The notes beneath the pieces are model-generated. The model saw nothing but the letters and a program-made list of their open reading frames with translations, searched no databases and was not told where the DNA came from. From positions 242,692 to 306,691 of the forward strand of contig CAVXHV010000009.1 in the NCBI GenBank assembly GCA_963761445.1: a stretch of 64,000 nt of DNA, read 5' to 3'. Position numbers and translations under genes: made by a program. How positions within the stretch are numbered: the stretch's first letter is position 1; each line of letters begins with the position of its first letter. Origin of the DNA: an uncultured Planctomycetota bacterium (GTDB taxonomy: Bacteria; Planctomycetota; Planctomycetia; Isosphaerales; Isosphaeraceae). Of this stretch, positions 2,166 through 33,669 are shown one piece after another.

Positions 2166-2264
2166 AGGGCACCGCCCTGGGGTCTGGCGCGGAAATCCCG
2201 ACCCGTGTGGTTCGGGCGGCTTGTTTCGCCCTTTCAGGGCGATACCCTCTTTCGTTGACGTAAT

Positions 2265-3532: not shown

Positions 3533-3620
3533 GCTCACGCTCACGGCAATCACGGTGCATTTCCTGTTAACGGTTGTGGTTTCGAGCGGGATGTCAGGCT
3601 AGAAGCCTGACCTTTAATTC

Positions 3621-7009: not shown

Positions 7010-7051
7010 CAAGTTTGGGGTGATTTTCGATAGATGGGCTCGCGCGAATAT

Positions 7052-7152
7052 CATTGTCGCCCTTCGCTCCGCGAAGGGACCTGCTTTCTGATGTCTGTCG
7101 TTGGGATGAGCTTTCGCCCATAACATTGTCGCCCTTCGCTCCGCGAAGGGAC
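7052..7152 (+). repeat. Two direct copies of REP family 2 hairpin (cattgtcgcccttcgctccgcgaagggac)
   Basis: Identical 29-mers at 7052-7080 and 7124-7152. The core cccttcgc/gcgaaggg forms an 8-bp stem. They lie just downstream of the stop at 7009. Related copies occur at 41759-41788 and 48638-48664. Confidence 0.85.
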
Positions 7153-7572
7153 TTTCTCACCGAAAACGCCAGAAAACGGGGTAAAACCGTCGGAAGTACG
7201 CCGAGATGACGGCCTCGCCGTTGTTGAAGCACGCGCGCAGCAGATGCAGCCCCCCGTCACTTGCGTCATCTGCGTCATTGACTTCGTCACAGCGAGCGAA
7301 TCCCAGCAGCCGCCAGCGCGACGGAAGCGCTTCACCAATGGCCAAGGTCGTCCCACGGTCGATCCTGGGCTCGACCGACGACACGGCAAAGCTGCCAGGG
7401 CGACTTGCGCACTCATCCCGGCGAACATACCAACCCGAAGCGCAAGCGAGGATTCCGGTTACTCTCGCTCGCCCTTCGGGCAAGTGTGCTGACGGTATTA
7501 CCCGCAATTGAACCAGGCCCGAGTTCGTTTTGTATATTTGACGGTGTTCCTTTCTCCACGAGGGGTTAGGGG

Positions 7573-12568: not shown

Positions 12569-13753
12569 TCACGCCCCCGCGGTGGTGTGTCCGGCTTCAA
12601 CAGTATCATCACCGGCCCCGACATCCTCCACATTCTTAATCTCAGACAGCATCCAGTCAAACGCCTCCAGGAACTTCGCCAGCGTCGCGGGTTCTTTCAA
12701 TAAGCTGAGACCGAAACCCGGCCGTCGATTCAGAGCGTCTTGCGGGATCGGGAGTCCGATCGCCAAAAGCCGCCGGAGAAGTTCTCTGCGTTTCGCTTCT
12801 TCGCCGAACGGCGGCCTCTTCATGTGTTGAAACTGAATCTCGACGGTGCCGTATGTCCACACGGAAAAAAGGAAGTGCGGTCCGAATTTGTTGTCGTACA
12901 TCGGAAAGAACGACCCGTCTTTCCTCCCTTGGCCCCACCAAACTCGCAGGCCGTGATCATTGGCCCAGAGCAGGAGCTTCCGTGCGATTGTCGTCTCCGA
13001 TTCCCCTCGCCTTTCGAGGATGCTGTCGAAGAACGACGCCTGATCCCACTGCCGTGATTCAGCCCGTGAAGCGCCCTTTTTTCCGCGAGCCGTTTCGGTT
13101 TGACCGAGCACGCGCGGGACGAGAGTCTTGAGGTTCTCGCCCACGAACTGCTTGACCTCGATGGCGAGCACCTCGGCCGGGTCCATCTGACTATTGAGGA
13201 ACTCGACAACCCGCCGCAGCTCAGGCGGAATCTCGTCGGCGATGAACAGCAAGCGGACCCGCCCGGCCTGAAGGTTCGTTTTCACTCGCTGCCAGAACGT
13301 CGCGGCGTCCTGACCTTCCCTGACGAGGTCGACAACTTCCGCCTCGGGGTCGACGCCATCCTCCTTGCATCGGTTCTCGAACCTGGCTTTGATCTCCTCG
13401 ACGGGCCAGTATGCGACCGCATTAGCCGCGTAGTCGAGCATCTGGCCGACGACCTCGCGCCGGACGCGGGTATCCGCGCTTCGCTTCACTTCGACGAGCG
13501 TGGGGATGGCTTCCTGATCGAGAAATAGATGGTCGAGCGCCCATCGACTCGACCCATCCTGTTCACCGGGGACGGCCATCTCACGGGTCACGAGCAACCA
13601 ACGCCTCGGCTGCTCGGCATTGATCTGCTCCCCGGCGAGCAGGTCCGGGTGATCGGCCAGGAGCTTCTGCAAAAGGCTTTCCGAGTCGTACGGCGCCTCG
13701 TCCATGGCGACCAGCTTCGTGTCATTACTCAGAAGGTAGATGCGACCACCCAC
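12569..13753 (-). CDS. PD-(D/E)xK (NucS/DUF91-like) nuclease-fold protein with an unknown C-terminal half
   Basis: ..LDHLFLDQEAIPTLVEVKRSADTRVRREVVGQMLDYA.. fits the D...(D/E)xK restriction-endonuclease-like core. 394 aa. Confidence 0.6.
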   Translation of the reverse strand: MGGRIYLLSNDTKLVAMDEAPYDSESLLQKLLADHPDLLAGEQINAEQPRRWLLVTREMAVPGEQDGSSRWALDHLFLDQEAIPTLVEVKRSADTRVRREVVGQMLDYAANAVAYWPVEEIKARFENRCKEDGVDPEAEVVDLVREGQDAATFWQRVKTNLQAGRVRLLFIADEIPPELRRVVEFLNSQMDPAEVLAIEVKQFVGENLKTLVPRVLGQTETARGKKGASRAESRQWDQASFFDSILERRGESETTIARKLLLWANDHGLRVWWGQGRKDGSFFPMYDNKFGPHFLFSVWTYGTVEIQFQHMKRPPFGEEAKRRELLRRLLAIGLPIPQDALNRRPGFGLSLLKEPATLAKFLEAFDWMLSEIKNVEDVGAGDDTVEAGHTTAGA

Positions 13754-13819
13754 GTGTTTACCTGTCTTGAAAACGGTAGCGCCGAGAGTGTCCAGCTCGA
13801 GCCGCAGTCACGACTCGCT

Positions 13820-14191
13820 TCACTTCTGCAACCGGTGCATCACGGCCCAGACCTCGTGCAGCGAATGTTCGTAAGGCGCTCCAGCCCGTCCCTGATGGCG
13901 TGCGACCTCCGACTTGAAGTTGTCGTAGTCGGTACCTTCCGCCAGCCCCGCGAGCAAACTCGCCCACGGAGATTTCTCAACGAATAGCCGGTACGCGTAG
14001 TCCCTCCCCACAGTTTCCTGGATTTCGCATGCACCGAGAAGGCCAGGGAACCGCTGTTTCAAGGCCTCGAGATGACCTCGGACTCTCGCGCGCACCATGA
14101 TGCGGTCGGGATTGACGGCCTGGCCATGCTTGCCGTCACCCTGCCGGGCGCAGACCGCACTAAAGAATCGGTGCTTTGTGAAAATCCACAT
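13820..14191 (-). CDS. Hypothetical protein (123 aa)
   Basis: ATG at 14191 preceded by ggag. MWIFTKHRFFSAVCA..IMVRARVRGHLEALK..DYDNFKSEV. The track ORF 13820-14404 overextends. Confidence 0.5.
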   Translation of the reverse strand: MWIFTKHRFFSAVCARQGDGKHGQAVNPDRIMVRARVRGHLEALKQRFPGLLGACEIQETVGRDYAYRLFVEKSPWASLLAGLAEGTDYDNFKSEVARHQGRAGAPYEHSLHEVWAVMHRLQK

Positions 14192-14247
14192 ATTTCGCTC
14201 CGCCTGCTCCAGCGTTTTGGTGTTGAAAACTCCCGCCGCTGCTCCAA

Positions 14248-14766
14248 TCAGAACGGCTCGAAAAACGACGGTTGCGGCCGCCGGTCCGGTTTCGTCAGGA
14301 CCTCGGCCCGCTCGGGATCCCGCAGCAGCCAGGCAAATCCTCCGGTCGTCTCGGTTATCGCGAAGCAGGCAGGCAGGCTGTGCCGCGGTTCGAGTGGTTC
14401 GCATCCCACGATCTCGACCGTCCCCACAAGCACGCCTCTTGGTAAGGCGTCGATGTCCATCTCGAACTCCGCCGCGATCCGACTTTCCTCGTGCCGCTCG
14501 ATACGCTGCAAACCGGCATAGATGTGAACGCGCTCTCCCTTCTTATGAGTCCGTCTCGGTCGGGCCTCGACGGTTTTCGCGCCACGCAGGATCAACTCAG
14601 CCCAAGGCTGTCGGACGCTGAGGGCTCGCACTGATATTCTCCAGTTTCGATACCTGTCATCGTTCAAATCGGAGCCGGTGCCTCGCTCCGTTTCCTGATC
14701 GACTGCTTCTTCGGGCTCGCAGCGCTGGAACACCCTCGGTCCTGGCGGACGTTCAACCGAACTCAA
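14248..14766 (-). CDS. ASCH (ASC-1 homology, PUA-like) domain protein
   Basis: ALSVRQPWAELILRGAKTVEAR..GERVHIYA.. is the typical ASCH N-terminal strand-helix. A TTG at 14766 overlaps the upstream stop. An alternative GTG at 14631 would give a 128-aa protein. Confidence 0.7.
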   Translation of the reverse strand: MSSVERPPGPRVFQRCEPEEAVDQETERGTGSDLNDDRYRNWRISVRALSVRQPWAELILRGAKTVEARPRRTHKKGERVHIYAGLQRIERHEESRIAAEFEMDIDALPRGVLVGTVEIVGCEPLEPRHSLPACFAITETTGGFAWLLRDPERAEVLTKPDRRPQPSFFEPF

Positions 14767-15323
14767 GTCTGCCGAGCGTCTACAACTGTCTTCGCCGCAT
14801 CGAGCAGTTTCCGGGCCTGACGGTCCGCTTCCTCTGCCATCTGGACGCTGACATGCGGCTTCAGCTCATGGAGTCGTGCGGCAACGCCGTCAGGATCGAC
14901 AACCCCCTCTCGCATTCGAATCCAGATTGCAGTTGCCAGGGGCTCCAGTTCGATAACGCCCATTCGCCCAATCTGGCCACAAACAAATTCCACGGCCTTC
15001 TGTGACGCCTCTGGCAGGGGCGAAAAATCCTTCACCAACAAAGCGTTCATGCCCGGACTCAACCGGACCCCGTACCAGCCTTCCACCGTGTCCGACTTCA
15101 GGGCCGCATAACTCTTCATTTGCTCGAGCTCAATCTCAAAGTCCGTCAGGTATGGACCGTGTTTGTAGAGAACGAAGTTAAATGGCGCCTCCAGCAGCCC
15201 GCAGGCATCCAAAAGGAATAGGGCTTTCTGGACATGGGTCTTTCCCGTCCTGCTTTCGTGCTTGTTCAGACTTTCGACGACCGCCAAGATGAGAGCGTGC
15301 TTGTCAAACCGCATTTCGTTCAC
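14763..15323 (-). CDS. DUF4065 / Panacea (SocA-like antitoxin domain)-like protein
   Basis: ..KTHVQKALFLLDACG..FNFVLYKHGPYLTDFEIELEQMK.. resembles the DUF4065 core (KLQKLLY...W.yGPv). The GTG start overlaps the corrected HD-gene stop (GTGA). Confidence 0.5.
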   Translation of the reverse strand: MNEMRFDKHALILAVVESLNKHESRTGKTHVQKALFLLDACGLLEAPFNFVLYKHGPYLTDFEIELEQMKSYAALKSDTVEGWYGVRLSPGMNALLVKDFSPLPEASQKAVEFVCGQIGRMGVIELEPLATAIWIRMREGVVDPDGVAARLHELKPHVSVQMAEEADRQARKLLDAAKTVVDARQT

Positions 15324-16634
15324 CCTTTCCTTTCGGGCGAATCACCCAGTAGTCGCCCCAGCTCGGATTCGATCTTTGGCTTTGCCTGATCCTTGGTATC
15401 AGGCGGAACGAAAATCAAGCCAATCTCGATCGCCGGCAATTGGGCGATAACCTTGGAGACTGACGGTGAGCTGACCACGGAGTGATCATCTGTCAGGACC
15501 GGAAAATCGTTCGTCTCTGACTTGGGCCCGTATCGATCCCAAAGGACCTGTTCCGCGCCGCAGACCCCCTTCGTGAATTCCAGGAGGTTTTCGAAAGATC
15601 GTCGGGCACCTCTCCTTGTAAGAACCGAGCAATTCGAACACCGTGCGAAAATGCTTCCGAGAGACTAACCTTGAAGCGAGTTCATGGAGCCGATGGTCTG
15701 GATGCGTCGCACACCGTCTGATCGCGGCGGTCACTTCATGATCGGTGTAATTCATCATCGCCTCCCAATCGGCTGAGAACTTGCCACCGTCAAGCCACCC
15801 TTGGAGGAAGTCTCTGAGATGGAGGTCATACACGCGCCGTACATCGTGGAAGTAAACCTGAGTGTACATGAAGTAGCGGGCCAGCAAGAGGGCCTCCGCG
15901 GAGTGAATACTGCCAACGTCAAGCCCGAGCGCGATCTCGTTGTTATCAGGATGGATCACGGCTCGCAAGCCTGCGATGAGGCGGTCCTCGTCGAATCGTC
16001 CATAGGAGACGCCAGCATGCCATGAATCGCGAAGAAGGTAATCGATCCGATCGGCCCCGAACGTGTTACCCGTAATGATTTCATTGAGCAGCGTCTTCCA
16101 CGGCGACAGATTCACGTTCGGTTCAACCCGAAGACGTTTCTTCAAGTCCCAAGACAGGTCGATGACGTCCTCTGGGCGGATCGAATCGTCCTCCAAAATC
16201 CCAGCGATCTCTGAGTGCCGGATCGTCTCGGCTGTGATGCGCTCGTGGTTCCATCCTTCCGGTAGCAACGCCTCCTCGGCGGCGTGGGAGAACGGCAAGT
16301 GCCCGACGTCATGAAGAAGCGCCGCGACTCGTACGACTTGCCGCCAGTTTTCCTTACGCCGCGGTTCCAGCTCGTCGGCGATCCTCTCGCGGACAAGATC
16401 CGGGACCGTGACGTCGAAAACCGCATGGAAAATCTGATCGGCTACCTCCATGACCCCGATCGAGTGTTCGAACCGCGTGTGCGTGGCCCCGGGGTACACC
16501 TGGTAACACATCGCAAGTTGATGGATACAACGCAATCGCTGAAACGGCTCGGAGTCGATGAGCCGCTTCTCAAGATTGTTGAAGCGCACGAAGCCATGAA
16601 CCCCGTCACGCACCTCGTGCCGCACTTTCGCCAT
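15320..16634 (-). CDS. SAMHD1-like HD-domain (d)NTP triphosphohydrolase; one apparent frameshift near 15593
   Basis: VHGFVRF..EPFQRLRCIHQLAM..VYPGATHTRFEHSIGV.., LHDVGHLPFSH, GADRIDYLLRDS. A 92-codon stop-free frame (15320-15598) continues the protein after a 1-nt shift. Confidence 0.8.
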
Positions 16635-16739
16635 GTCCCCGGTTCCCCGTTCTATACTAATAGTGGACTTGCGTCAACTTCCTTGCGGTACCCCTGTCTA
16701 TCCCCACATCTCAGAATCTGGCCGGCGCCCGCTGGTAAA

Positions 16740-16777
16740 GGGGCGTGAGTAGCAATGGAACAGAAAACTGGCATAAG
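16740..16777 (+). repeat. Tn3-family terminal inverted repeat, left
   Basis: GGGGCGTGAGTAGCAATGGAACAGAAAACTGGCATAAG. Has the canonical GGGG...TAAG architecture. Confidence 0.9.
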
Positions 16778-16796
16778 GACCGTCTACGCCGCCAGG

Positions 16797-19791
16797 TCAT
16801 CCTGCTCGTCGGGGCTCGCGAAGCGGTCGTAGCTGCCCCTGCCGGACTGATTCCTTCAGGGCGAACTCGTACCGGCCCAGCACGTTGACGTGGTCGAGCA
16901 GCAGCGGCGAGAGCCGTTCGACATCTTCCGGCTTGACCGCCTCGCCGGTGGCGCGGACCTTGGCCAGGGCGGCGTCCAGATAGCGGGTGTTCCAGAGCAC
17001 CACCGCATTGACCACCAGACCCAGCGCCCCCAGTTGGTCCTCCTGGCCTTCGCGGTAGCGTTGCCGCAGTTCGCCCCGCTGGCCGTGGAAGATCGCCCGC
17101 GCCACGGCGTGCCGGCTCTCGCCCCGGTTGAGCTGGGTGAGGATGCGGCGGCGATACGCCTCGTCGTCCAGGTAGTTCAGCAGGTACAGCGTCTTGGCCA
17201 CGCGGCCCAGCTCGCCGATCGCCCGGCCCAGCGTCGAGGGGCGACCGCCGCCCTGCAAGCCGCGGATCAGCTCCGAGGCGCTGACGGCCCCCATCTTCAA
17301 CGACCCGGCCACCCGTAGCAGGTCGTCCCAGTTCCGCTCGATCCGCGGGATGTTGATCCGCTGGCGGGCCACGCCGTCGAGCGCCCCGTAATCGGCCTTC
17401 GGGTCCATCCGCCAGAACCGGGCATCCCCGAAGTCGGCCAGCCGGGGGCTGAACTGGTAGCCCAGGAGCCAGAACAGGCCGAAGACCAGGTCGCTGTAGC
17501 CGGCCGTGTCGCTCATGACCTCGTGAGGGCGAAGGCCGGTCTGCTGCTCGAGCAGGCCCTCGAGGATGAACAGGGAGTCGCGGATCGTGCCCGGCACGAC
17601 GATGGCGTGGAAGCCGGTGAACTGGTCGCTGGTGAAGTTGTAGTAGGTGACGCCGCGTCCGGTGTTGAAGTACTTCGGGTTCGGGCCGGCGTTGAGGGTG
17701 CGGACCGGGACGACGAAGCGGAGGCCGTCGGCCGAGGCGACCTCGCCGCCGCCCCAGGCCCGCGCCAGGGGGATCTGGGCCTGGTAGTCGACCAGCCGGG
17801 CGTTGGCCTTGGTGATGGTCTCGGCGCGGATGTAGTTCTGCTGGACCCAGGAGAGCCGGCCGCGGGTCAACGCGGGGACGTCGGGGCGGACCAGGGGCTC
17901 CAGGCCGATGTTGCACGCCTCGGCCAGGAGCACCGCGCAGAGGCTCAGGTCGAGGTCGCCGACCCGGGCGTCGCCCTCGCTGACGTGGCGGAATTCGCCG
18001 GCGAAGTTGGTCCAGGCCAGGACTTCCAGGAGGACCTCGGTCAGGTCCACGCGGGGCAGCCGCGCGGTCACGTCCCTGCGGAGATCGACCAGGCTGGCGG
18101 GCTCGTCCAGCTTGTCCAGCGGGGTGAGCGTCAGGACGTCGCGCCGGCCGACCCGCTCGATCGTCACGGCGGAGTTGGTCGGCAAGTTGTTCGCGGTCCG
18201 CCGGTAGGCTTCGTCGAGCTGCTTGCCGAGGCTTTCCAGTTCCCGGCCGCCGTGGGCGATCGTCCCAACGTCCGACAGACGCGCGACCGCACCTTCTCCC
18301 AGGCCGGCCCTTGCAGGAGCTTGGCGTGCGGGTCGCCCCAGCGGCGGCTGGCGGGCACGAACAGGTCGCGGCGCTTGAGGCCGTCCTGGAGCCGTTCCAG
18401 GACGCAGAACGTGTAGAGTTGGCGGTCGATCCGGCCCTCCGGCCCGATCACGACCCGCTTCCAGGCCGGGGTCAGGAGGGCCTGGGGTGCCTGACTCATG
18501 TCGGGCCGCTTCTGTCCCTCGATGGTCTTGAGGAAGCGGAATGCCTCGGTCGCGGGCCGGCCCGCGTCGGTCGCCGCGAACTCGACCGCCTCCAGGAGTG
18601 CGGGCAGGAAGCGACGCACCTGACTGTATCGGCTCCGCAGATCCTCGAAGTAGTGGTCATCGGGTGTCCCGACCAGGTCGGCGACCTGGGCCACGGCTTG
18701 GGTGAGCTGGTCTCGGGAGACGCGGGCGAAGACGGCGTTGCGGACGCCTCGGTCGGCACACCCGGGGTCGAGCACGACGAGGCATGCCTCGTGGAGCAGC
18801 AACGCGGCGACGTCCAGATCCTTGAGCGTGCGGAGGCGCCGCTGCTGGCCGGCGCGTTCGACGCGGCCGAGCATCGCCGTGACCAACTGATCGAGCAGGT
18901 CCACGACGTCATCAAGGGCCGCGATTTCCTGAACCTTGGCGAAGGCGAGGAGGGTCGCCTGGCGGCGGGGCGGAGGCATCCGGGCGATGGCCTGCGCCCG
19001 TGCCGCGGCGGCGAACCGGGCCAGGGCATGGACCCGCACGGGCGGCACGGCGGACAGGTCGATGTGGCTCACCCCCAGTGCCCGGATCTCCTGGAGCCGT
19101 CGCAGCGCCTCGACCAGGCCCGCCATGCTGACCCGGGTCGGGGCGCGGCGGAGACGCTCCAGGGGCGACTGGCGGGAAACCGCGTCGGCGACCAGCAACA
19201 TCTCCAGGCGGGCCGCTTGCCGAGGCTTCAGGGCGCGTGCCAGGGTGCGCCACAACCGCAAGGCGGCCCGGTCGCGGACCTGGGCCACCAGGCGGGCGAG
19301 CACCGTCACCCCCGGCAGAGAGGATCTTGCGCTCGACCAGCCGAGCCGTGGCCAGGTCGAAGAGGACGCTGGGACGTTCGGCACAGACCCAGGCCCGGTT
19401 GGCGAGCCAGCGGGACAAGGCCGCGGCTCGGCACCCTGGTGGAAATCGCGGTAGCCGTAGTGGCGGCGGATCTCGGCGGCATGGTCCCAGCGCTTCTCGC
19501 CCGCCGCGTAGCGCTTCAAGCCGCCGGTGTCGGCGATGCCGAGTTGCCGGCCGAGGTAGGCGACAACGCCCGGCGGGACCTCGGTCGGGTCGGGCAGGAA
19601 GGTCCCCAGGAACCGCACGGTCCCGAGCTGCACGGCGAACCCGAGGCGGTTGTGATCGCCCCGGCGCTGGGCGATGAGACGCGGTCCGTGTCGTCGAGAT
19701 GGAAGTAGCGTTCGAGTTGGGCGGGCGACGGCTCGCCTGCGTAGCGACCGTAGCGGCGCTGTTGCTCCTCGGTCAGGAAGTCGACGGGCAT
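16797..19791 (-). pseudogene. tnpA: Tn3-family transposase TnpA, at least 4 apparent frameshifts
   Basis: N-terminal [31 protein letters not shown] (DUF4158-like). C-terminal DDE_Tn3 part is ORF 16797-18185. Frame changes near 19685, 19425, 19320 and 18243 (the last in a CCC run). Confidence 0.9.
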
Positions 19792-19817
19792 CCTTGCCCT
19801 CCTTCGTCGCGGCGGGC

Positions 19818-20722
19818 CTACTCGCTCTCGCCGATCCGCTCGACGGCCCGCTCCAGGTCGAGGCGTGACGGCGTGCAATAGCGTCGGGTGGTCTCCAGGC
19901 TCTCGTGCCCGGCGAGGGCGGCAACCTGCTCCAGACCGACCCCGGCGTCGATCAGGTTCTTGCAGAACGTGTGGCGCAGGGCATGGGGCGAGAGGTCGTC
20001 GAGCCGGGCCAGGGCTCCGTATCTGGCCAGGAGCGTCTGGACGCCCGGGGCGTCATCGGCCCGCGCTGGCCCTGAAGGATCACGGCCTCCTCGCCGGCAT
20101 GCTGCGAATAACCCAGGGCCGTCAGCGCGGCCCGGGCGTCCTGATTGAGCGGCACCTGGCGGTGCTTTCCCCCCTTGCCTTGGCGGACCGTCAGCAGGCC
20201 CTTGCGTTCGGAGAGGGCGACGTCCTTCCAGGTCAAGTCACAGAGTTCCTGGACTCGCAGGCCGGTGTTGAGCAGGAGCCGGACGACGGCCAGGTCCCGC
20301 GGCTTTCCGGCGCGTTCGACGGCTCGGAGCAGGGCGTTCTGCTCGCGGCGGTCGAGCCAGCGCGGCCCGGGCCGCTCCTGGGGAACGGCCGAGGGCCGCT
20401 CCAGGATCGGCCTTGGGCGGGAACCGGGAGGCCGGGAGCGATACCCGCCGCGGCCGCCCAGGTCAGAAAGCTCTTCAGGGTGGCGAGCTTGCGGTTGACG
20501 CTGCTGGGCTTGAGCTTCCGTTGCTCGACCAGCCATCGCTTGAACTGCCTCAGGTCGGTCGGGGTGACCTTGGCCGGCTCCATCGGCTCGCCGTTGACAT
20601 CCTCGAACCAGGCGGCGAAGGCGGCGAGGTCGCCGCGGTAGTTCTTGATCGTCAGGGGGCTGCGCTCGGCCTGGGCCAGGAAGCCGGCGAAGCGATTCGA
20701 TGGGGTCGGAGGCACGGGCCAT
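19818..20722 (-). pseudogene. Tyrosine recombinase (TnpI/XerC-like) of the transposon, at least 2 apparent frameshifts
   Basis: N-terminal SAM-like part ..LTIKNYRGDLAAFAAWF... Catalytic motifs TGLRVQEL, HALRHTF and [11 protein letters not shown] are spread over three frames. Stop at 19818-19820. Confidence 0.8.
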
Positions 20723-20810
20723 CGTTATACGTCGAGTATTTCGGGGATCGGGATCGGAATCGGGCGGTCTTATACGCCGAGTCGGCCCGGAAGTCAACGT
20801 ATAACGTCAG
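20723..20810. promoter_or_regulatory. Putative recombination (res/IRS-like) site and recombinase promoter region
   Basis: cgttatacgt (20723-20732) and its inverted partner acgtataacg (20796-20805) flank a third half-site cttatacgccgag (20769-20781). Lies immediately upstream of the recombinase start. Confidence 0.4.
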
Positions 20811-20970
20811 TTCTACGACCACTTGGCGGATGCACCATAGGGTTCATCCTTGAGCCCAGTGGCTGGGGTGGATAGGCTGCAAAGGATCGTCGATGACTTT
20901 GAACCGTGGTCCTCTCAGTCCGCTGTTCCGCCACCAAGCCGCGACCACTGTCACTTGAGAGGACGGGACC

Positions 20971-23900
20971 ATGGCCGGAAACTGGCGTACCGTCCGCGTG
21001 TTCATCTCCTCGACGTTTCGCGACATGCATGCGGAGTGCGATCACCTCGTGCAGGTCGTCTTCCCCAAACTCCGCGAGCGGCTAGCTTCCTACCGTGTCG
21101 AGCTGATCGACATCGATCTCCGCTGGGGCGTCACGCGGGAGCAAGCTGAAAACGACCAGGCAGCTCGATGTCTGTCTGCACTGGATCGACGAGTGTCGGC
21201 CCTTCTTTATTGGCCTGCTGGGTGAACGCTATGGCTACGTCCCTTCCCGCCATCCGATCGTCGCCCAGTCGAAGTACGGTGAAGTGCAGTTCGAGACCGG
21301 CCGCAGTATCACCGAGTTGGAAATTCTCTTCGGTGTCCTACTCAACGACCCGCCGAATGCGCGGTCGGTCCTTCTTCTACTTTCGCGACCCCGACGCGTT
21401 GAAGGACGTCCCCGAGGACGTAAAGCGATCGACCTACCTTGAAACCGATTCCGCCTTCCAGGTGAAGCTGGCCGTGCTGAAGGAAAAGATCCGTGCCAGC
21501 GGGGTGCAGCTCATCGAGGACTACCCAGCCAGTTGGAACTCAGACACTTTCGACCGTCCGACAAAGTCCCTTGGCCGCCTCGACGGCCTGGAGGCGTTTG
21601 GCGAGCGGGTTTACGAGCAACTCTGGCGAGCCATCCAGATCGAGCACACTCTTCTCGATGCGCCCCCGGCCCCCGCTGGCCAGGACGAGCTGCGCGGCTG
21701 GCCTCCGAGGTTGACGACTACTGGCGCGGTTCATGGAGTCTCGCCTCCGCGTCTATGTCGGCCGCGGCGAATTGCAAGACGCCCTTATCACTTACGCTGA
21801 CGGCAACCATCACTATCCCTGTCTCCTAACCGGCCAATCCGGCTCGGGCAAGTCGTCAGCTTTGTGCGCTTCGTCATCGCATACCAGGAACAGCACCGCA
21901 ATGTGCTTGTCATCCCTCACTTCATCGGTGCCAGTCCCCGCTCGGGCAGCCTTCGCGACCTGCTGCGCCGACTTTGCCTGACGCTAAAGGGTGCCTTTGG
22001 CTATGGAGAGGACGTTCCCCTGGAGATCGCCCCGCTCGTTACGACCTTCCGCGACTTCCTGGTCCGCGTCCCGGCTGACTGCCGCGTCCTGATCGTGTTG
22101 GACGCCCTCAACCAAATCGAAGAGAGCGATCGTGCCTGCGAATTGTATTGGTTGCCATACGAATTATTACCTCATGTGAAAATTATAAGCAGCTGCATCA
22201 TCGATCCGAGGTCTCCCGGGGCCGAGCTCGACCCAGTCGCGAACGCCTTCCAACACCGGCCTGCTCACCTGCTCCGCGTCACAGACCTCAGCGACACCGA
22301 CCGCCGGACGATGATCTGCGAGTACCCCTCGCTCTTCGCCAAAACGCTCGACGCCTCCCAGATTGGTATGCTCCTGTCCAACCCGGCTACGTCCACCCCG
22401 CTCTACCTACGTGTCGCTCTGGAGGAGCTTCGCGGGTTCGGCTCGTTCGACGATCTCGATGACCGCATCAAGGCTCTCCCTCGCGACGGCCTACCCGACG
22501 CCGTCTTGCTCCACGCCGGCTTTTCGCCCAAGGCGATGCGAAAGGCCGGTGACCCGCTCACAGCGCTTTTCGTGCAGGTAATCGAGCGGCTGGAATCCGA
22601 GTTCGAATGCGAAGACGTCCGCTCGATCCTCACCCTGCTCGCCTCCGCGCGGTTTGGGCTGTCGGACCGCGAGCTGCTCGAATTGCTCGAGGGGCCAGGC
22701 GTGGCGATCGAGGCCAGCACGAGCGACCTGTTTCCCAGACTGCGCCAGCTCCGTCCTTACCTCCAAAATGTCGGCGGCCTGCTCGGTTTCTTCCACGGCA
22801 ACTTACTCCAGGCCGTCCGGCGGCATTATCTCGATACCGATGACCAACGGCGTACCGCACACGCCCGGCTTGGTGACTATTTCGAGCCTCAAACCACCTG
22901 GCTCGAATCGCCGGACGCGTTCTGGGAACGAGCCCGTCACTCGGCACCGTCACCTCGCCTCGCCAACCTCCGCAAGGTCGATGAGCTGGTATGGCAACGG
23001 ATCGAGGCACAGGAATGGATTCTCGTTGTGAAATTGCTGACAAGCCTCGATTGCCTCGAGGCCAAGGCCGAAGGCGGCCGCACATTCGATCTAGCCGGTG
23101 AGTTGGCCAGGGTTACTCAGAGGATGCCCGAAAACGATTCCGCTCGGCAGCTCCTTCGGCTGCTCGAACAAGCGATCCGGGGCGACATCCATTTTCTGGT
23201 GCGTCATCCGACAACGCTGTTCCAGTGCCTCTGGAATCGCTGCTGGTGGTACGACTGCCCGGAGTCCGCTGAGCACTATCTGCCGGGGGACAAGCCACCA
23301 GTGCAGAGCGGTTCCAACTCGAGGACTCTTCGACTTGATGGAAGCCTGGCGAAGAACCAAGGAGGCCGTGCAGCCAGGTTTCATCTGGCTCCGCTCGCTC
23401 CGCCCCTCCCCCACGCGTCTGGGGCGGGTCTACTGGCGGTCCTTCAGGGACACGCTGGCCCGGTCCTGGGTGTGGCGTTCTCGGCTCAGGGTGATCGAAT
23501 CGCGAGCGGCGCGGAGGACCAGACGGTGAGGGTCTGGGACACCGCGTCCGGGTGTGAGGTCGGATGCCTCAGAGGACATACCGCCGCCGTCGGCTGCGTG
23601 GCGTTCTCGCCCGACGGCCGGTGGATCGCCAGCGGGTCGAAGGACCAGACCCTACGCCTCTGGGACTCCCGCACCGGCGCGAGCTCCTCTGCCTGGACGG
23701 ACACACCTCCGAGGTCGTGTGTGTGGCATTCTCGCCCGACGGCCGGTGGATCGCCAGTGCGTCTCATGACTGCACCGCCCGTCTCTGGGAGGCCGATTCC
23801 GGCGCGAACGCGTCTGCCTCCGCGGACACTCCTCTTGGGTCGATGCCTCGCATCTTCGCCCGACGGCGAGCGAATCGCGACGGGCTCCTCGGACCAGACC

Positions 23901-24972
23901 TTGCGTGTTTGGGATACCAGCGTCGGAGTCGAGCTCGTCTGCTCGAGCAACGCCGGGTGTTCCATTGAGGATCTGGCCTTCTTACCTGGTGGCCGTCGCA
24001 TCATCACCGGCTCAAGAGGCGGCACCATCCAGCTTTGGGACGCCGATTCGGGCGACGAGCTCGGCGGCCAGCCGGGAAACAGCCAGATCATGGGCGTGGC
24101 GGTGGCACCCGACGGTCGCAGGATCATCGACGTCTTCTGGGATCTCAACCTCCGCCTCCACGACACCTTCTCGGGCCACACATACGCCATCTACCGCGGC
24201 GCGGACGCTGTCGTCGGGAGCGTCGCTTTTTCGCCCGACGGACAACGCATCGCCAGTGGCTCGTGGGACCACCTGGTGCGGGTCTGGGATGCCGGCTTCA
24301 GCAGTGAACCCTCTTCCCTCCGAGGCCACACCACGGAAATCGCCGGCATCCAGTTCTCGCCTGACGGACGACTGGTCGCAAGCCACTCAGAGGACGGCTC
24401 TCTGCGTGTCTGGGACGCTGGCTCCGGGCGAGAAATCGCCTGTTGTCGCGACGGCGACTACTCCTCCGAGATCGTCAGTATGGTCTTCGCACCCGAGGGC
24501 CGATGGCTGGCGTTCACTCGGTCGAATGGCACCACACGTGTCTGGGACGCCCAATCCGAGGGAGAACCTGTCACCCTGCAAGGACTTGGCCCGGGAGTGA
24601 CTGGTTGGATGAAACGGCTTGACTTCACCTCCGACGCCCGGCGCATGCGTGGGCGTCTTACTCGACGACACCGTGGCCGCCTGGAACCCCAAGACCGGGG
24701 CCCGACTCGAAGCTCATGATATCCAAAGAGAGGTGCCCGGACCTGCTCCAGCGAACGGGGAATTCCCGTGGCGCGCCCGATCTGAACCGGGCGGGGACAC
24801 AGCGATCGTGCCGGCGAGTGGGGGAGCCCCTGTGGCATGGTTCCCCGCAACGCCCGACGAGTTGAAAACCTCGCCTTCCGGTCGTACCTGGGCTGGGAAT
24901 GTCTTTAAACACCTATATCTCATCCGCCTGGAAGGCGACTCAAGGTTCCGCGAGCAAGATTGTAACGGTTAG
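20971..24972 (+). pseudogene. DUF4062-NACHT-WD40 STAND NTPase (NWD1-like architecture), at least 8 apparent frameshifts
   Basis: N-terminal VRVFISSTFRDMHAECDHL..DLRWGV (DUF4062-like). Walker A LLTGQSGSGKSS, Walker B VLIVLDALNQ. Many GH..V..VAFSPDG..IASGS.D.T.R.WD repeats. Pieces lie in ORFs 20971-, 21168-, 21733-, 21864-, 23564- and 24619-. Confidence 0.85.
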
Positions 24973-25036
24973 ACTATCCATTTCGCCTTCAGGTCGGTTG
25001 GCCACAGTGTCCAGGTGCTTCGGTATTTGGCGTGGG

Positions 25037-25074
25037 CCTATTCCAGTTTTCTGTTCCATTGCTACTCACGGGCC
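25037..25074 (-). repeat. Tn3-family terminal inverted repeat, right
   Basis: cctattccagttttctgttccattgctactcacgggcc. Reverse complement of IR-L with 4 mismatches; the outer GGGG has become GGCC. Confidence 0.85.
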
Positions 25075-25288
25075 GTAAAGCTCGAGTTAGATTTCCTTCC
25101 ACCAATGCCAAGATTGGTGCGGAACTCCCGTGCGCCGTCGTTCGCACATGAGGCTGAAAGTCCGGCAACTGAAGCACGCCGCGATGGCAGTCTCCGAGCA
25201 GTTTGTGGAGGTCAAACGGGTTTCTCTGGAATGTTGATCCGGGCATGATTCGAGCTTTCCTTCTCGGGCAACCGTTTCGTTAAACGGC

Positions 25289-25794: not shown

Positions 25795-27128
25795 CTAAGG
25801 AACAGGCCGAGAATAAGTTCCCGGCGTTATACGGTCTTGGGTTCGGGGACTGCTCGGTAGTTCCACTTGGGCAGGATCTTGTCGAAGATGATCTTCATGG
25901 TCTTCTTGAATCCCGCGGCACACTTGCGTCCTGTCTGATACATCTTGTAGAGGATACGCACGCTGATTGTCAGGCCCGTCGTGGTTTCGGTCTTGGATAT
26001 GTAGTGCTGCACCGTTTCCAACGTCCGAAAGATCACGCCCCGACACGCTCGCGTCACATGCGGGAAAAGGCGATGCTCGATCGGGTTATACTTCGAGCAG
26101 TAAGGCGGGTAGTGGGCCACCCGGATTTCGACGCCCAGCCGGTTCGCTAGCTCTTGGAGCTGCTCCTTGAAGACGTACCTCGACGCACTGTTACTCCCGC
26201 CGCCGTCGCACAGCACTAGGATCTTCTTAGCCCTGGGATAACTCACCCGTCCGTGATCCTCCCACCACGCTGCGATACTGTCACAAGCCAGCTCGCTGGT
26301 GTCGTGGCTGGTGTTCAGGTGGATGAATCCTCGATTTCGCCCTACATCGTAGACGCCGTGAGGAATTACCACGCCCGAGCCTGCACTACTGAAATCATGG
26401 TCGTTGGTTTCAATCGTCTCCTGCGTGTCGATTACGCCGTCACGGTGGAAGTCACCCATCAACTCCTTCTTCTTCGTGTCGATGCTGATGACCGGCAAAC
26501 CGGCCTTCAGGTACTTCTTCTTGAGACGGGCGATGTTCTCGAACTGGACGTTGCGGTCCGGGTGACGCGGTCCCATCGTCTTCTTCTTCAATGCTTTTCG
26601 CCTTCGGTATCCGTGTTTGCGAAGCAACTGGGACACGATGTGTCGACTGGTCGGAGTACCCAAAGCCGTGACCCGAAGCGCTATCTGTCTACGTGACAAG
26701 TTCGTCCATTTCACGTCGGTGCGCATCGGATCTCCAGCAGTGTGGTCCTCGAGAACCTTTAAGAAGTTCGCTTCGACGGCAGCGTTGATCTCGATCGCCT
26801 TTTTGCACCCCCCCCTTTTTTTCGGACACGAGTCGTGTCCAGCTCATCTGTCGCTTCCAGCTCCGCCTTTCCACGGCGGATCGTCTTTGGATCGCATTCA
26901 AGGATCTGGGCAATGTACTCAGTTCCACCATGACCCAGTTTGGCAGCCTCGATGGCCGCGTACCGCCGTCGATCGTCCTCCGAAAGTGACTCATACAGCC
27001 GCTTCATCATCCGCTCAATTTCCGGTGCATACGCGTCCATGCTGCCCTCCTTGGCGTTTCCCTACGGACAGCGAGCTTGATATCATACTTCAGGGAAAAC
27101 GGGAAGTTAATTTCGGCCCGTTCCTAAG
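25795..27128 (-). mobile_element. ISAzo13-family insertion sequence (about 1334 bp)
   Basis: Imperfect 29-bp IRs (24 of 29): ctaaggaacaggccgagaataagttcccg at 25795-25823 and cgggaagttaatttcggcccgttcctaag at 27100-27128. Confidence 0.75.
25827..27040 (-). CDS. ISAzo13-family (Rhodopirellula-type DDE) transposase; frame change in an A7G8 run
   Basis: ORF 26759-27040 (..RVRKKGGG) and ORF 25827-26726 (..DPMRTDVKWTNLS..YPPYCSKYNPIEHRLF) join across the homopolymer at 26808-26822. Confidence 0.8.
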
Positions 27129-29731
27129 CATGCCGGACGAAGAAGCTCTCTTCGTTGTAATCGGTATCGATGAACCAACAAGCGATGCCCGCAGCGCCGT
27201 CGCTTCGAACTTCGCCGGTGTTGGGATGGAAGACATCCACCCCGTTGATCTTCACTCGCATCTGACCGTTAATTTCCGGCATGAGCGTGATGTCCGGCTC
27301 GCCGAAGATGACGAAGAGATTACCTTTGCCGGTGTTCTTCAGATCATCAGACATGTGCAGGTCGGCGTTCATTCGCGCCTTCAGCACGGGAATGCGGCCG
27401 AGCTTGTTGAATTCCGTCGTATGCGCCTCGTAGTTAAACGCGCAGGCGATCAGCACATCGAAACCCGCATCGCCGGCCTCGCGGGCGGCCGCCACCAGGT
27501 CGGCGCGCTGAACCGTGCCGAACTCCGGCCCGAGAAAGATAGCGGCGCGTTTTTCATTGTCCCCTTCCAAGTACCGCCCCTCGGCGCAGACAAAGCTCCC
27601 TGGCCAGGGCGTCAGCGCAGTGAACGTGATTCGGTCTTCCTTACGCGCCTGCTGCACGCCGGCCGTCTTCAGATTCTCCAGAATCATCTGGTCGAAACTG
27701 CCGCCTTCGTCCCTGATGTTCGAAAGCGGATCGATCAGCTCGTCGTTTTCATCCACGCCGAGCGTGCGGTGGGGAGAGAGACTCTCGACGGTGAAGGGGC
27801 CGGCCACTCGCACCTTCTTTTTGTCTTCATAGGGTTTGTCATAGAGGAATTCAAACTCGGCCTTGGCGGCGATCGAGGCGTCGATCTCCTTCTGCCGCGA
27901 GGTGCGGGCCTGCCACCACTCGGCGTGAAGCTTCCGCACGGGCTGTGACCACTCATCCTCCGGCTCGCGCGGAATCTCCCACTCCCGCCAGGACCTCCCG
28001 ACGGCGGCGTTTAGCGAGTCGCGCAGCGGCCCCAGCGCGCCCTGCCACTTTTCCCAGATGACGTCGATCTCCGCATTATCGGCGATGGACTTGAGCGTGA
28101 TGTGCGGCACCCGCTCATAGACAAAGCCGTGGCGGACATTGCCGTGAACGGGCTGCGAAGAGGGCGCGGTCCGGGAGACCTCGGCTTCTTTGAGCTGGCC
28201 ATCGCGGGAATCAGCTAGGAGGTAGTACGAGTATCGCGCGCCCATGATGCGGGCACGGGCTAGCGCCAGCGCGACGCGCGAGGTGTCAATCGTGATCCAG
28301 CGACGGCCCCATTGCTCTGAGACAGCCGCAGTGGTTCCCGACCCACAAGTCGGGTCGAGCACGAGGTCACCGGGATCAGTCGCCATCAGGATACATCGCT
28401 GGACTACCTTTTCGTTTGTCTGGACGACATAAACCTTGTCCGACGCACCTCCTACGTCGGTCCAAGCGCCGCCCAAGCTGACGGTTGGGTCGTCACCGAA
28501 GAAACGCCGGAGGCTGATTTGCTTACCGTCAATGACAATGCGACCAGCGCGCGCAACTCTTCCAAGTCCATCTACAGTGACTTTCCAGTGCGCCGCCTTT
28601 CCAGGGTGGAAGGTCACGCAGTTAAACTGGAAGTCAACAGTCGTATTTGGGCGGAAGCCGTCGGAGGTTAATGGATAGGACCTCCACACGACACTCAAAT
28701 CCTTTATCAATGACGGATCATCTCTTTCGTCTCGAGTTAGAGATCGGCTGTCCACAGGCGACGTCGCAATCTTGGTGTAGCCGCTGCCACCTTCACCCTT
28801 CAGATCTCGAGGACGTAGCAATGCCCTAAACTTGCTCTCAGCGGCACGCCTTGAGCGGGCAAACCATAGGATTCGATCAGAATTAGACTGAATAAACGCT
28901 CCCACAAGGCTTCCAGTCTTCTGAACCGCGATCTCAACAACGAAGTTCTCTTCTCCAAATATCTCCTCAAGTCAGCGCTCGAATGCGATGCACGTTCTCA
29001 TCGCCGATCTGCACGAAGATGGAACCAGAATCAGTGAGCAAATCCCGCGCAACGGTGAGACGATCACGTAGGTAGGTGAGATAGCTGTGGATACCATCGC
29101 GCCACGTGTCACGAAACGCTTTAACCTGCTCCGGCTCACGCGTGATGTGATCGGCCTTACCATCCTTCACGTCGCGGCTCGTCGTCGACCACTGAAAGTT
29201 ACTATTGAACTTGATCCCATAAGGAGGGTCGATGTAGATGCATTGCACCTTGCCACGCAACCCCTCGCGCTCGGCCAAGCTGGCCATGACTTGGAGCGAA
29301 TCCCCGAGGATCATGCGGTTCGACCAGTTCTGGTCATGCTGATAGAAATCGGTCTTGTCCACCCCGTCCGGAATCCCGTTGAACTCGGCAAACAAGTCAA
29401 GTTGAACCTGCTTGCCCGGCTTCTCCTGTTGCTGCGACTGCCTCAGCAGGTCGTCAATGAGAACCTTCGGATGCACCTTCTCCTGGATATAGAGCGGCGG
29501 CGCGTGCACGACCAGGTCGCTCCAGTCCTGGGTATCCTTCCCACGCCAAACAAGCTGCGGGTCGAGATCGCGATTCCGCCGCTCGTACGCAACCCGGATC
29601 AGCCGCTCCGCCTCCTGTTTCACAACGGACTGGAATTCCGCCGTCGGGATGTTCTTCCGCTTGTCCGCCTCGTGCATGAGGGTCTCGACCGTCTTCTTCG
29701 CCGGTTCCTTCGCGGATTTCTTCGCCGCCAT
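27124..29731 (-). CDS. mod: Type III R-M DNA methyltransferase (Mod, beta-class N6A/N4C); frameshift near 28970 and 3' end cut by ISAzo13
   Basis: IYIDPPYGIKF (motif IV) in ORF 28967-29731. DPTCGSGTTAAV (motif I) in ORF 27124-28905. The join reads ..RIRAL|LEEIFGEENFVVEIAVQKTGSLVGAFIQ. The stop codon lies within the IS terminus. Confidence 0.85.
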
Positions 29732-29770
29732 GACGGGCCCCTTCCTACGAGTCCAATGTGTCCGGATTCT

Positions 29771-30586
29771 TCAAGGCTTTCTTCCCCTCGGAGGCAAGGC
29801 GGCGCTCGACCTTTTTGACGTCTTCGGCGGCTGGGAGACTCTCGGGCCGGATGCCGCGCCGAGCAGCGTTTTGCGCACCGCCTGGTTGTTCGTGACATGC
29901 TCTCGCGAGATTGCGCTTTCACTCGCCAGGCCGTGTTCGCGGGTATTGAAGATCGTGATCTCGGCGGCGAAGTCCTTCGCTTTCAGAATGATCGTTGGAG
30001 CAAAGTCTGCCAGGGGCCGGCTGTCCGGTACTTTCCACTGGGCTTTCATCGCCAGCGTGCTTTTGCCGAAGAGCGCCTGGTCGCCCTTGCTTCGGATCAG
30101 GGCGAAGTCCTGATTCACGCTGATCCGCTCGTAGATAACCCCGGAAAGCTCCCGCTCAGTCGTCGTGAGTTTCTGACGTGCCGCGACGCGTTCGGCCTCC
30201 AGGATCCGCTGTTCGATCAACTCCGCCCGGCGAGTCTGGACAGCGAAGTAGGTCTGGGCGAACGCGATTTCCTGCTTCTTGGGATCGCCATTCTGAGCAG
30301 CGAGGTAGCACGCGTACCGGGTGAGCATCATGTCGTCCACTTCGCGCTGGCTTCCGGAGCCGAGATCGACCATTTTGTTGACGTCAACAAAATGGTCGGA
30401 AACCTCGTGTCCGGAGAGCTCGCACGCGGTTTTCGCCTTGGTGATCACGGCCGTGAAGTTCCGCCACTCCGTGTATCCCAGCAAATGCTGAAGGTCGCGG
30501 GCGAGCCAGAATTCGACGCCGCCATCGGTCTGCTGAGCGTGGCCTTCAAATGTGTCCGTCAACGCGTGAATCAGCTCGGTTTTCAT
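29771..30586 (-). CDS. dinD: DNA damage-inducible protein D (DinD)-like
   Basis: FWLARDLQHLLGYTEWRNF..AKTACELSGH..LTRYACYLAAQNGDP..AQTYFAVQTRR matches my recollection of the DinD family. Overlaps the res stop by 4 nt. Confidence 0.8.
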   Translation of the reverse strand: MKTELIHALTDTFEGHAQQTDGGVEFWLARDLQHLLGYTEWRNFTAVITKAKTACELSGHEVSDHFVDVNKMVDLGSGSQREVDDMMLTRYACYLAAQNGDPKKQEIAFAQTYFAVQTRRAELIEQRILEAERVAARQKLTTTERELSGVIYERISVNQDFALIRSKGDQALFGKSTLAMKAQWKVPDSRPLADFAPTIILKAKDFAAEITIFNTREHGLASESAISREHVTNNQAVRKTLLGAASGPRVSQPPKTSKRSSAALPPRGRKP

Positions 30587-33500: not shown

Positions 33501-33669
33501 TCTTTCTTTTCTTCGCCCGGGGAATTGGTGTGATGAACTCGGCGCGCCGACGGCTCTCGATAATTCGTTGTGTCGGCTGACCCTGCTCGTCCAGTTCCCA
33601 GTGTCGCTGCGGCGTCTCATACGGAGAGTTCAGGATCGGATGTTCAAAAAAGGGATTCGCCATCTTCAA
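30583..33669 (-). CDS. res: Type III restriction endonuclease/helicase subunit (Res), 1028 aa, intact
   Basis: Walker A LATGAGKTTVM, DEAH box VLNDEAHHCY, motif VI ..MLTEGWDANTVTHVLG. A C-terminal nuclease-like region follows. Confidence 0.9.
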   Translation of the reverse strand: MKMANPFFEHPILNSPYETPQRHWELDEQGQPTQRIIESRRRAEFITPIPRAKKRKKGAGQRDFVFDEGKGLSTKEQQYDPTSLINEVRGQVSQWRAWPKPSEWQVTPETARLLEHWRHHKFAWVRPFFCQVEALETAIWLTEVAPHSKRGKQILENLGASSEDANPGLLRIALKLATGAGKTTVMAMLIAWQTINAVRRPGSKNFTRGFLVVAPGLTIKDRLRVLQPNDPDSYYSSRELVPGDMLDDVNRAKIVITNFHSFKLRERIELSAGGRSLLQGRGEELNTLETEGQMLQRVMPDLMGMKNILVLNDEAHHCYRAKPEDEDGPEFKGDEKQEAKRNNEAARLWISGLEAVNRKLGLAQVIDLSATPFFLRGSGYAEGTLFPWTVSDFSLMDAIECGIVKLPRVPVAENIPGDEMPVYRNLWENIRQDMPKKGRGRGGELDPLKLPTRLQTALQALYGHYEKTFRLWDAEGIRVPPCFIIVCQNTAISKLVYDFVSGFHRKNEDGTTTLENGRLALFRNFDETTGNALPRPNTLLIDSEQLEAGDALDDNFRAMAGDEIARFRGEIIERTGDRQAAENITDQELLREVMNTVGKGGQLGGAIRCVVSVSMLTEGWDANTVTHVLGIRAFGTQLLCEQVIGRALRRQSYDLNEEGLFNVEYADIFGIPFDFTAKPVVAPPQKPRETIQVKAMRPERDALEIRFPRVEGYRVELPEERLTAEFNDDSILVLTPDLVGPSITRNAGIIGEGVDLNLEHLADMRPSTLLFHVTHRLLYTKWRDPGEEPKLHLFGQLKRVTKEWLETCLVCKGETYPALLMYQELADMACNRITAGVTRAFLGDRPIKALLDPYNPAGSTRHVRFNTSKSDRWETSAARCHINWVILDSDWEAEFCRVAEWHPNVRAYAKNHNLGLDVPYRYGSETRTYRPDFIVLVDDGHGDDDLLHLLVEIKGYRREDAKEKKSTMETYWVPGVNNLKSYGRWAFAEFTDVYGIQADFKAKVESGFNKMIEAAVSPAILTHVGHAS

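Follow-up and report, generated by a model that had tools for sequence, protein, structure and literature searches.

A stretch of 64,000 nucleotides (nt) from an uncultured planctomycete of the Isosphaeraceae (GenBank assembly GCA_963761445.1, contig CAVXHV010000009.1, positions 242,692 to 306,691; here called the window and numbered from its first base) contains a gene for an NLR-like STAND NTPase next to the genes of a transposon. This locus raises the question of whether the gene was carried there as transposon cargo, whether the element is intact, and whether its product could act in immunity. The first part has a plain answer: positions 16740-25074 hold a complete Tn3-family unit transposon, 8,335 bp long, which moved in one piece. 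An earlier note, made from the letters alone, had proposed such an element with exact ends, a pair of 38-bp terminal inverted repeats (IRs) matching at 34 positions, and a GTAAA flank on both sides. The IRs, the target duplication, and the domains of the transposase all agreed with this proposal. Alignment of both ends, 16740-16777 (IR-L) with the reverse complement of 25037-25074 (IR-R), gave identity at 34 of 38 positions. IR-L, in full GGGGCGTGAGTAGCAATGGAACAGAAAACTGGCATAAG, opens with GGGGCGTGAG and closes with CATAAG, giving the GGGG tip and TAAG inner end typical of Tn3-family IRs of about this length; the pattern of IR-R is GGCC...TAGG. The direct repeat GTAAA, of the 5-bp length typical of Tn3-family target duplications, lies immediately outside each IR. 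A 28-nt core of the IR occurs exactly twice in the window, against an expectation of 0 from 100 shuffles. Movement as a unit follows from the terminal IR pair, the 5-bp duplication, and the fact that this IR family is common to 116 other loci.

All 8,335 bp could be assigned to the parts listed here with the flanking duplication. IR-bearing relatives are labeled L001 to L120, and the lengths of TnpA and TnpI are those of repaired reading frames.

16735..16739, no strand: left copy of the target-site duplication, GTAAA, identical to 25075-25079
16740..16777, plus strand: IR-L, 38 bp, the tnpA-proximal end, aligned base for base with the ends of L001, L002, and other loci
16784..19791, minus strand: tnpA, Tn3-family transposase, 1002 aa when repaired, identified by Pfam domains, relatives, and a PDB match
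19818..20722, minus strand: tnpI, tyrosine recombinase, 301 aa when repaired, identified by Pfam, PDB, and homologs
20725..20823, no strand: putative internal resolution site (IRS), a cluster of a 13-bp motif upstream of tnpI
20824..20970, plus strand: spacer of 147 bp before the passenger gene, presumed promoter region, without similarity to other IR-bearing loci
20971..24972, plus strand: passenger gene, DUF4062-NACHT-helical-WD40 STAND NTPase of ~1333 aa, identified by Pfam and collinear homologs
25037..25074, minus strand: IR-R, 38 bp, the cargo end, with a GGCC tip and TAGG inner end, pairing with IR-L and matching the IRs of relatives
25075..25079, no strand: right copy of the target-site duplication, GTAAA, identical to 16735-16739

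The transposase combines PF01526 (DDE_Tnp_Tn3, 503.6 bits) with PF13700 (DUF4158, 94.7 bits), as expected of a Tn3-family TnpA of about 1000 aa, and is split by five one-base insertions or deletions (indels) as assembled. It matches the Tn4430 TnpA (cryo-EM chains, PDB 7qd8) over its full length (residues 33-993, E = 1.9e-136). The earlier note had tnpA end 20 nt inside IR-L, which is true of the frameshifted open reading frame (ORF) only; relatives and the repaired frame place the natural stop codon, TAG at 16784-16786, 6 nt from the IR. A terminator-like hairpin with a T-run (16770-16790, minus strand) lies just past this stop and overlaps the inner part of IR-L.

A tyrosine recombinase gene upstream of tnpA, in a layout like that of Tn4430 and Tn5401, had also been predicted and was confirmed. 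tnpI is co-oriented with tnpA and lies 26 nt upstream of it, its stop is at 19818, and tnpA starts at 19791. TnpI contains Phage_integrase (126.5 bits) and Phage_int_SAM_1 domains, and its PDB matches are Xer-like. It is 45-50% identical to plasmid recombinases, one of them adjoining a DUF4158 gene, and ~34% identical to the products of tnpI-like genes of Bacillus thuringiensis. Directly upstream of tnpI, the 13-bp motif TTATACGYCGAGT is present at 20725-20737 and 20770-20782 (plus strand) and inverted at 20792-20804; two copies are exact and one has 2 mismatches, all within 80 bp. A 6-bp spacer, CGTCAG, follows 20804 and precedes a degenerate fourth copy at 20811-20823. The three strong copies and one degenerate copy, together with the 301-aa recombinase, appear to make up the cointegrate-resolution module expected of a Tn3-family element, with putative binding and crossover sites within the cluster. 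This layout, in which accessory repeats lie by tnpI and an inverted pair surrounds a 6-bp spacer farther out, resembles the IRS of Tn4430. The region is kept in L001 and L026, and similar motifs lie next to the IR in the miniature elements L019 and L029. By analogy with the Tn3 family and with Tn4430, TnpA would bind both IRs and transpose the element replicatively (copy-in) via a cointegrate, which TnpI would resolve at the repeat cluster.

In organization, with tnpI and tnpA co-oriented and the IRS upstream of tnpI, the element is of the Tn4430 type. The same IRS-tnpI-tnpA order in one direction is seen in Tn4430 and Tn5401, and the B. thuringiensis pBMB28 locus has the same layout; a Xer-like TnpI of ~300 aa and repeat motifs directly upstream of tnpI are further points in common. 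Tn4430 likewise has 38-bp IRs and a 5-bp duplication, and it is not known to carry a passenger gene. The likeness does not extend to the host phylum, to the guanine-plus-cytosine (G+C) content, to TnpI, with its ~34% identity to the Bacillus proteins, or to TnpA, which scores ~460 bits against Tn4430 compared with 1000-1117 bits (55-60% identity) against its closest plasmid homologs. By this similarity ranking, which is not a tree, the element has a Tn4430-like organization on a TnpA outside the Tn4430 clade. The closest TnpAs adjoin serine recombinases and come from elements resembling the Tn3 subgroup (e.g., on Nostoc pNOS3756_1 and Escherichia coli pKPC-bca9, and in L002 and L068), in which a divergent PF00239 resolvase takes the place of the window's co-oriented tyrosine recombinase.

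The earlier note had called for a search for the IR in other genomes. With an exact 24-nt IR core as the query against genomes, metagenomes, and viral contigs, matches came from 40 stretches of GTDB species-representative genomes and 76 metagenome contigs, for a total of 116 other public loci, mostly from Planctomycetota. A complete lack of related elements with these IRs, which the note had named as a ground for refutation, is thereby clearly contradicted. Viral contigs gave no match. The hosts include Singulisphaera, Paludisphaera, many Isosphaeraceae, and other Planctomycetota metagenome-assembled genomes and, outside the phylum, Nostocales, Chloroflexia, Nocardioidaceae, Verrucomicrobiae, and Dormibacterota. 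The element tip at the family's loci coincides to the base with that in the window, and perfect 5-bp repeats flank 11 of the 36 IR pairs found elsewhere. Among 122 ends compared, 65 have a GGGG tip and 45 a GGCC tip. All four positions at which IR-L and IR-R differ are polymorphic across the family; IR-R equals the tnpA-side IR of L026 and L027 over 37 nt and shares 43 of 44 nt with an end in L037. Because of this polymorphism and the match to L026 and L027, the sequences point to two IR sub-lineages as the source of the mismatches. Decay was rejected as their cause on the same ground and because GGCC tips are common. The transposase appears to tolerate both tips, since GGCC tips occur in mixed-tip elements with intact target duplications, e.g., L025.

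Comparison with the relatives suggested how the element was put together. The transposition module, which runs from IR-L to the IRS, shares 94% identity with L001 and 88% with L026. Similarity to both ends at 20817/20818, 7 bases beyond the CGTCAG spacer and within the putative core's outer arm, and the window sequence beyond this point resembles nothing in any other fetched IR-bearing locus. The G+C content is 0.703 in the module, 0.630 in the cargo, and 0.587 in the flanks. The end of similarity in the core arm, the separate sub-lineages of the two IRs, and the difference in G+C content make it probable that the element is a hybrid, in which site-specific recombination at the IRS joined a cargo arm to a tnpA-tnpI arm. 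Two members of the family, one of them with the NACHT gene, would have recombined in a TnpI-type event that brought in the cargo arm, made up of the outer IRS arm, the gene, and IR-R. A further break is seen on the far side of tnpI. L068 (91% nucleotide identity over tnpA) and L002 (87%) have the same IR and a divergent PF00239 serine resolvase (~3150-3870 in L068 and 8095-8682 in L002; the window counterpart is 19791-20722), and they cease to match the window precisely where tnpA starts, 19791-19793. Near-identical tnpA genes are therefore paired either with a serine resolvase (L068 and L002) or with a co-oriented tyrosine recombinase (the window, L001, and L026), and the exactness of the break indicates that the resolution module was exchanged within one TnpA lineage. 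In L001, a complete N-type ATPase operon (AtpR, ATPase_gene1, and F1Fo subunits; 651-7426) adjoins the resolution-site side of the 94% module and is possibly that element's cargo; no second IR was found within the 22-kb locus.

As the earlier note had proposed, a ~4-kb DUF4062-NACHT-WD40 gene is the sole passenger, the rest of the element being taken up by the parts described above. The gene is interrupted by ~9 frame changes and separated from IR-R by 64 bp; no sigma-70 consensus was found in the spacer before it. The spliced protein matches DUF4062 (54.1 bits), NACHT (33.5 bits; cut-off, 26.7), and WD40 (207.8 bits, in at least 6 stretches) and is collinear from end to end with homologs of 1250-1350 aa at 52-55% identity. 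In DUF4062, the motifs ISSTFRDM and S-I-T-E-L-E are kept, the latter corresponding to the family consensus TELEI with its conserved Glu; the same holds for Walker A (GQSGSGKS) and Walker B (LIVLDALNQ), both of which are conserved. The WD40 region at 23456-24422 is a 126-nt DNA repeat, in which start-to-start spacings of 125 and 124 nt mark three one-base deletions that put one blade out of frame. The protein thus has the parts by which NLR-like and Avs proteins are recognized: a central STAND NTPase with Walker A and B, a predicted N-terminal effector with its presumed catalytic residue (DUF4062, the Glu of TELE), and a C-terminal repeat sensor (WD40 with a 126-nt period).

DUF4062 has been described as a TIR-like NADase, "NIR," with a catalytic Glu (three 2026 preprints; bioRxiv 10.64898/2026.05.01.722283 and 10.64898/2026.09.04.749371). 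The same preprints report NIR as the effector in an Avs2 and in Swarozyc, Vulcan, Vesta, and Evangelion, and as active in human TEP1; DUF4062-NACHT-WD40 is the architecture of NWD1 and TEP1 (bioRxiv 10.64898/2026.05.01.722283 and 10.64898/2026.09.04.749371). Given this architecture and the demonstrated NADase activity of DUF4062 effectors, we infer an immune function for the passenger by analogy. In the likely mechanism, the WD40 part would bind a ligand, the NACHT domain would oligomerize, and the activated NADase would deplete NAD+. The protein could not be placed in a described family (Avs1-5, bNACHT, or others). In PADLOC-DB v2.0.0, which predates the NIR papers, it matched no NLR, Avs, or bNACHT model; its sole match was a partial one to HEAT-ARM_XIII over the WD40 region, as was also the case for two intact homologs. 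Of the immune receptor on a Tn3-family element envisaged in the earlier note, the carriage and the architecture therefore stand, whereas the immune function gained no support from PADLOC or from the homologs, which lie among chromosomal genes.

The passenger has many distant relatives: among 8000 candidates scored, the family gave 2308 matches in Planctomycetota at E <= 1e-10. The three closest homologs are flanked by genes for DAHP synthase, FMN dehydrogenase, glutaminase, an FGGY kinase, and a permease, and no transposase or defense genes were seen near them. Our searches found no proteins 55-100% identical to the passenger. No DUF4062-NACHT gene was detected by tblastn in the other fetched IR-bearing loci, nor did the cargo or its junctions have nucleotide matches there. 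The search for the whole element proposed in the earlier note yielded no second cargo-bearing copy in any collection searched.

To map disruptions particular to the window, we aligned the module with six relatives. The module contains 10 window-specific indels, 6 deletions and 4 insertions, all of exactly 1 bp. Five are in tnpA (near 19680, 19427, 19318, 18244, and 16815), three in tnpI (near 20695, 20389, and 20046), and two in noncoding DNA (near 20746 and 16784). Once they are repaired, the frames of TnpI (301 aa) and TnpA (1002 aa) read through without interruption by a stop codon. In the cargo, frame changes near 21160, 21355, 21685, 21722, 21868, 23690, 23800, 23845, and 24630 lose no aligned residues, and no in-frame stop was seen on following the frames. 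As assembled, all three genes lack an intact ORF, so that the identities previously given to them hold, by homology and domains, and their integrity does not. The events total ~19, or 2.3 per kb; no nonsense codon was seen in ~2,640 codons, and larger deletions are absent. Programmed frameshifting was rejected as an explanation, as the indels are lineage-specific singletons at unrelated positions.

Genes outside the element were compared with homologs at 84-95% identity or with a defense-model profile, over ~12.3 kb. Frameshifts were found near 15594 (HD phosphohydrolase gene), 28935 (type III mod methyltransferase gene), and 39595 and 44593 (two conserved genes), that is, 4 in ~12.3 kb, or 0.33 per kb. 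None of the four loses aligned residues, and because chromosomal genes carry such residue-neutral frameshifts, a general indel-error problem in the assembly is suggested. The indel density in the element is ~7 times that in the other tested genes, and its enrichment over the rest of the window is put at ~5- to 7-fold (P <= 4e-5). A Viterbi segmentation by codon usage gave 27 same-strand frame switches in 55.7 kb; it found the module shifts, missed most of those in the cargo, and does not separate gene junctions from frameshifts, so that this number, true junctions included, is an upper bound only.

These results could be united in one reading: that the element is intact in the cell and currently mobile, that it acquired a TEP1/NWD1-type NIR-NACHT-WD40 immune receptor by TnpI-mediated recombination at the resolution site, and that it now spreads this receptor as a one-gene immune cassette. 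As a whole we consider this reading unlikely. We favor a more limited one, in which a Tn3-family unit transposon inserted as one piece, with a cargo arm probably added by recombination and with frame disruptions that are most likely assembly errors; several observations weigh against it. The cargo matches no NLR or Avs model of PADLOC, and its nearest homologs lie among metabolic genes; the core of the IRS was assigned from motif spacing only; and neither a second cargo-bearing copy nor an empty site, either of which would have pointed to recent mobility, was found in the collections searched. Furthermore, at ~2.3 compared with ~0.33 indels per kb, an explanation of the frame disruptions by error needs a local cause; the relatives L022 and L039 are intact and seem to derive from assemblies of a similar kind; and the cargo deviates at 10.3% of columns conserved at >=90% (rank 2 of 118), which could reflect relaxed constraint. 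We nevertheless judge it more likely than not that the ~19 disruptions are errors in the consensus of a long-read assembly where read support was weaker, and that the element in the cell would then be intact and recently inserted. Lower read support over a strain-variable insertion would account for the local excess. All 10 of the indels that could be sized are 1 bp, in coding and noncoding DNA alike. Between the window and L001, codons differ by 99 synonymous and 52 nonsynonymous changes, the proportion seen between intact copies and far from the ~69% nonsynonymous expected under neutrality (P = 3e-18). In the DDE region, the window deviates at 0 of 177 columns conserved at >=95% among 120 homologs, where the others average 1.6%. 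The synonymous excess and the lack of such deviations argue that TnpA has not been under relaxed selection. L001, from an ENA assembly with Flye-style contig names, likewise has ten 1-bp indels, 8 of them insertions, next to intact ATP synthase genes. L032 and the short-read relative L068 are intact, and the relics L002 and L031 have large deletions. Three of the 10 module indels, all deletions (19680, 19427, and 18244) lie in or beside inferred CCGCGG sites (P ~0.0015, post hoc), which hints at methylation-related basecalling error; no such signature rose above chance in the cargo. Several other frameshift sites (21360, 21693, 21725, and 44593) read GCGCGG. Composition as the sole cause of error was rejected, since the events are as dense in the cargo (63% G+C) as in the module (70% G+C).

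That absence of a simple composition effect also fits a genuine fossil, in which real one-base indels inactivated all three genes after insertion and left only the ends and the duplication intact. We regard this as possible, if doubtful. The ~19 disruptions in 8.3 kb, at ~7 times the density of the other tested genes of the contig, the excess of cargo substitutions at conserved positions, the frequency of decayed relatives in the family (L002, L031, and solo IRs), and the lack of another copy in the collections searched speak for it. Decay would, however, have had to produce 1-bp indels only, 10 of 10 times (P ~0.001-0.03, taking 1-bp events to make up 50-70% of small indels in nature), without a nonsense codon in ~2,640 codons, a larger deletion, or a rise in nonsynonymous change in tnpA. 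The usual ratio of indels to substitutions is ~1:10, at which ~9 hits would be expected at the 177 conserved TnpA positions, but 0 were seen, and nearby housekeeping-type genes bear the same type of lesion. Under either reading, any inactivation is very recent relative to the divergence from the relatives. An assembly chimera, or mis-join of reads from another organism, would explain why the module at 70% G+C stands well above flanks at 59%, and it would suit the high local indel density and the abundance of related modules in the same kind of metagenomes. It is nonetheless highly improbable, as a mis-join would not place a 38-bp IR pair and identical 5-bp repeats exactly at both junctions, and the same signature of IR and duplication is found at other family members. 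As for the cargo, it may be a STAND/WD40 signaling paralogue of planctomycete chromosomes, acquired by chance and without a link to defense, which we hold to be a tenable but minority view. The very large family in Planctomycetota, the metabolic surroundings of the three closest homologs with no defense genes near, the want of a PADLOC defense match beyond the partial one over the WD40 region, and the absence of such a gene from every other searched IR-bearing locus are in keeping with it. They have to be set against a DUF4062 domain that keeps its catalytic-Glu motif and is a demonstrated NAD+-depleting effector in several antiphage systems, including the STAND-type Avs2, and against an order of effector, STAND NTPase, and repeat sensor that is canonical for bacterial NLR-like defense; insertion beside a type III restriction-modification system and defense-like genes points the same way, though it has little bearing on where the cargo came from. 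Since the frame disruptions concentrate in the element, its genes cannot be called "pseudogene" or "active" from the consensus alone.

Tn3-family elements carry resistance, catabolic, virulence, and toxin-antitoxin genes, and our literature search found no report linking them with NACHT/NLR or candidate defense cargo. The element is of an ordinary kind, and its cargo is unusual and so far unique. In TnXax1 (PMC4337579), passengers likewise lie between the resolution site and one IR, but those of TnXax1-type elements are virulence, resistance, or toxin-antitoxin genes rather than an NLR-like NTPase. Defense systems have been documented as cargo of Tn7-like transposons (Benler et al. 2021, PMC8649781); these are also DDE transposons with candidate defense passengers, whereas the window element would use Tn3-type replicative transposition and carries a single cargo gene. 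The cargo itself shares with PsAvs2 and TEP1/NWD1 an N-terminal DUF4062 with the Glu motif, followed by a STAND NTPase and C-terminal repeats, and with NWD1/TEP1 the full DUF4062-NACHT-WD40 order. PsAvs2 differs from it in having TPR repeats and in belonging to a different STAND clade, and the NIR defense proteins differ in that the cargo has no PADLOC sequence match. If the reading of an intact and mobile immune cassette were true, no NLR-like receptor would have been shown on a Tn3-type unit transposon before, and the element would be a concrete means by which the TEP1/NWD1-type architecture shared by bacteria and eukaryotes spreads horizontally. As a single but clean case, the element illustrates how NLR-like genes can be mobilized.

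The IR family also offers a handle for surveying the mobile elements of Planctomycetota, with autonomous and miniature members and two interchangeable resolution modules. Miniature, nonautonomous derivatives of 234-1600 bp are abundant in related genomes (L014 4553-5579, L019 11-507, L025 1517-2202, L029 5872-6286, and L058, L070, L111, and L114-L116). Some consist of two IRs around resolution-site motifs and others of two IRs only, as in the miniature Tn3 derivatives known as TIMEs and MICs, and several have perfect 5-bp duplications. Near lone IR ends, ORFs for an M56 peptidase, a transglutaminase-like protein, a DDE_5 transposase, DUF1800, PMT_2, and a short-chain dehydrogenase were seen; as each has a single IR only, they are at most candidates for cargo.

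The element is inserted in an intergenic, variable, island-like stretch of a Planctomycetota-type chromosome. On one side (12569-16634) are HD/dGTPase-like, DarG-like, ASCH-domain, and PDC-S11-like genes. The true span of the HD gene is 15323-16634 (~437 aa, with the frameshift near 15594), and its ATG at 16634 confirms the 106 bp that the earlier note had counted between the start codon and the left end. The note had also raised the loss of this operon's original promoter. Neither the 106 bp nor the scanned inner stretch of the element next to them contains a recognizable sigma-70-like promoter, and relatives of the HD gene have different upstream genes and unrelated upstream sequence, results that speak neither for nor against such a loss. 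The empty-site alleles that the note had proposed to look for were not found: an exact 24-mer across the reconstructed join had no match in JGI metagenome contigs, and the HD orthologs of two related assemblies (73-76% nucleotide identity) cease to align 58-71 nt short of the insertion point, leaving no empty site to reconstruct. On the other side (25827-33669) are an ISAZ013-family insertion sequence and a type III restriction-modification system, with mod split at ~28935 and a res-like gene at 30583-33669. The insertion sequence contains a 299-aa transposase fragment identical to copies on other multi-megabase contigs.

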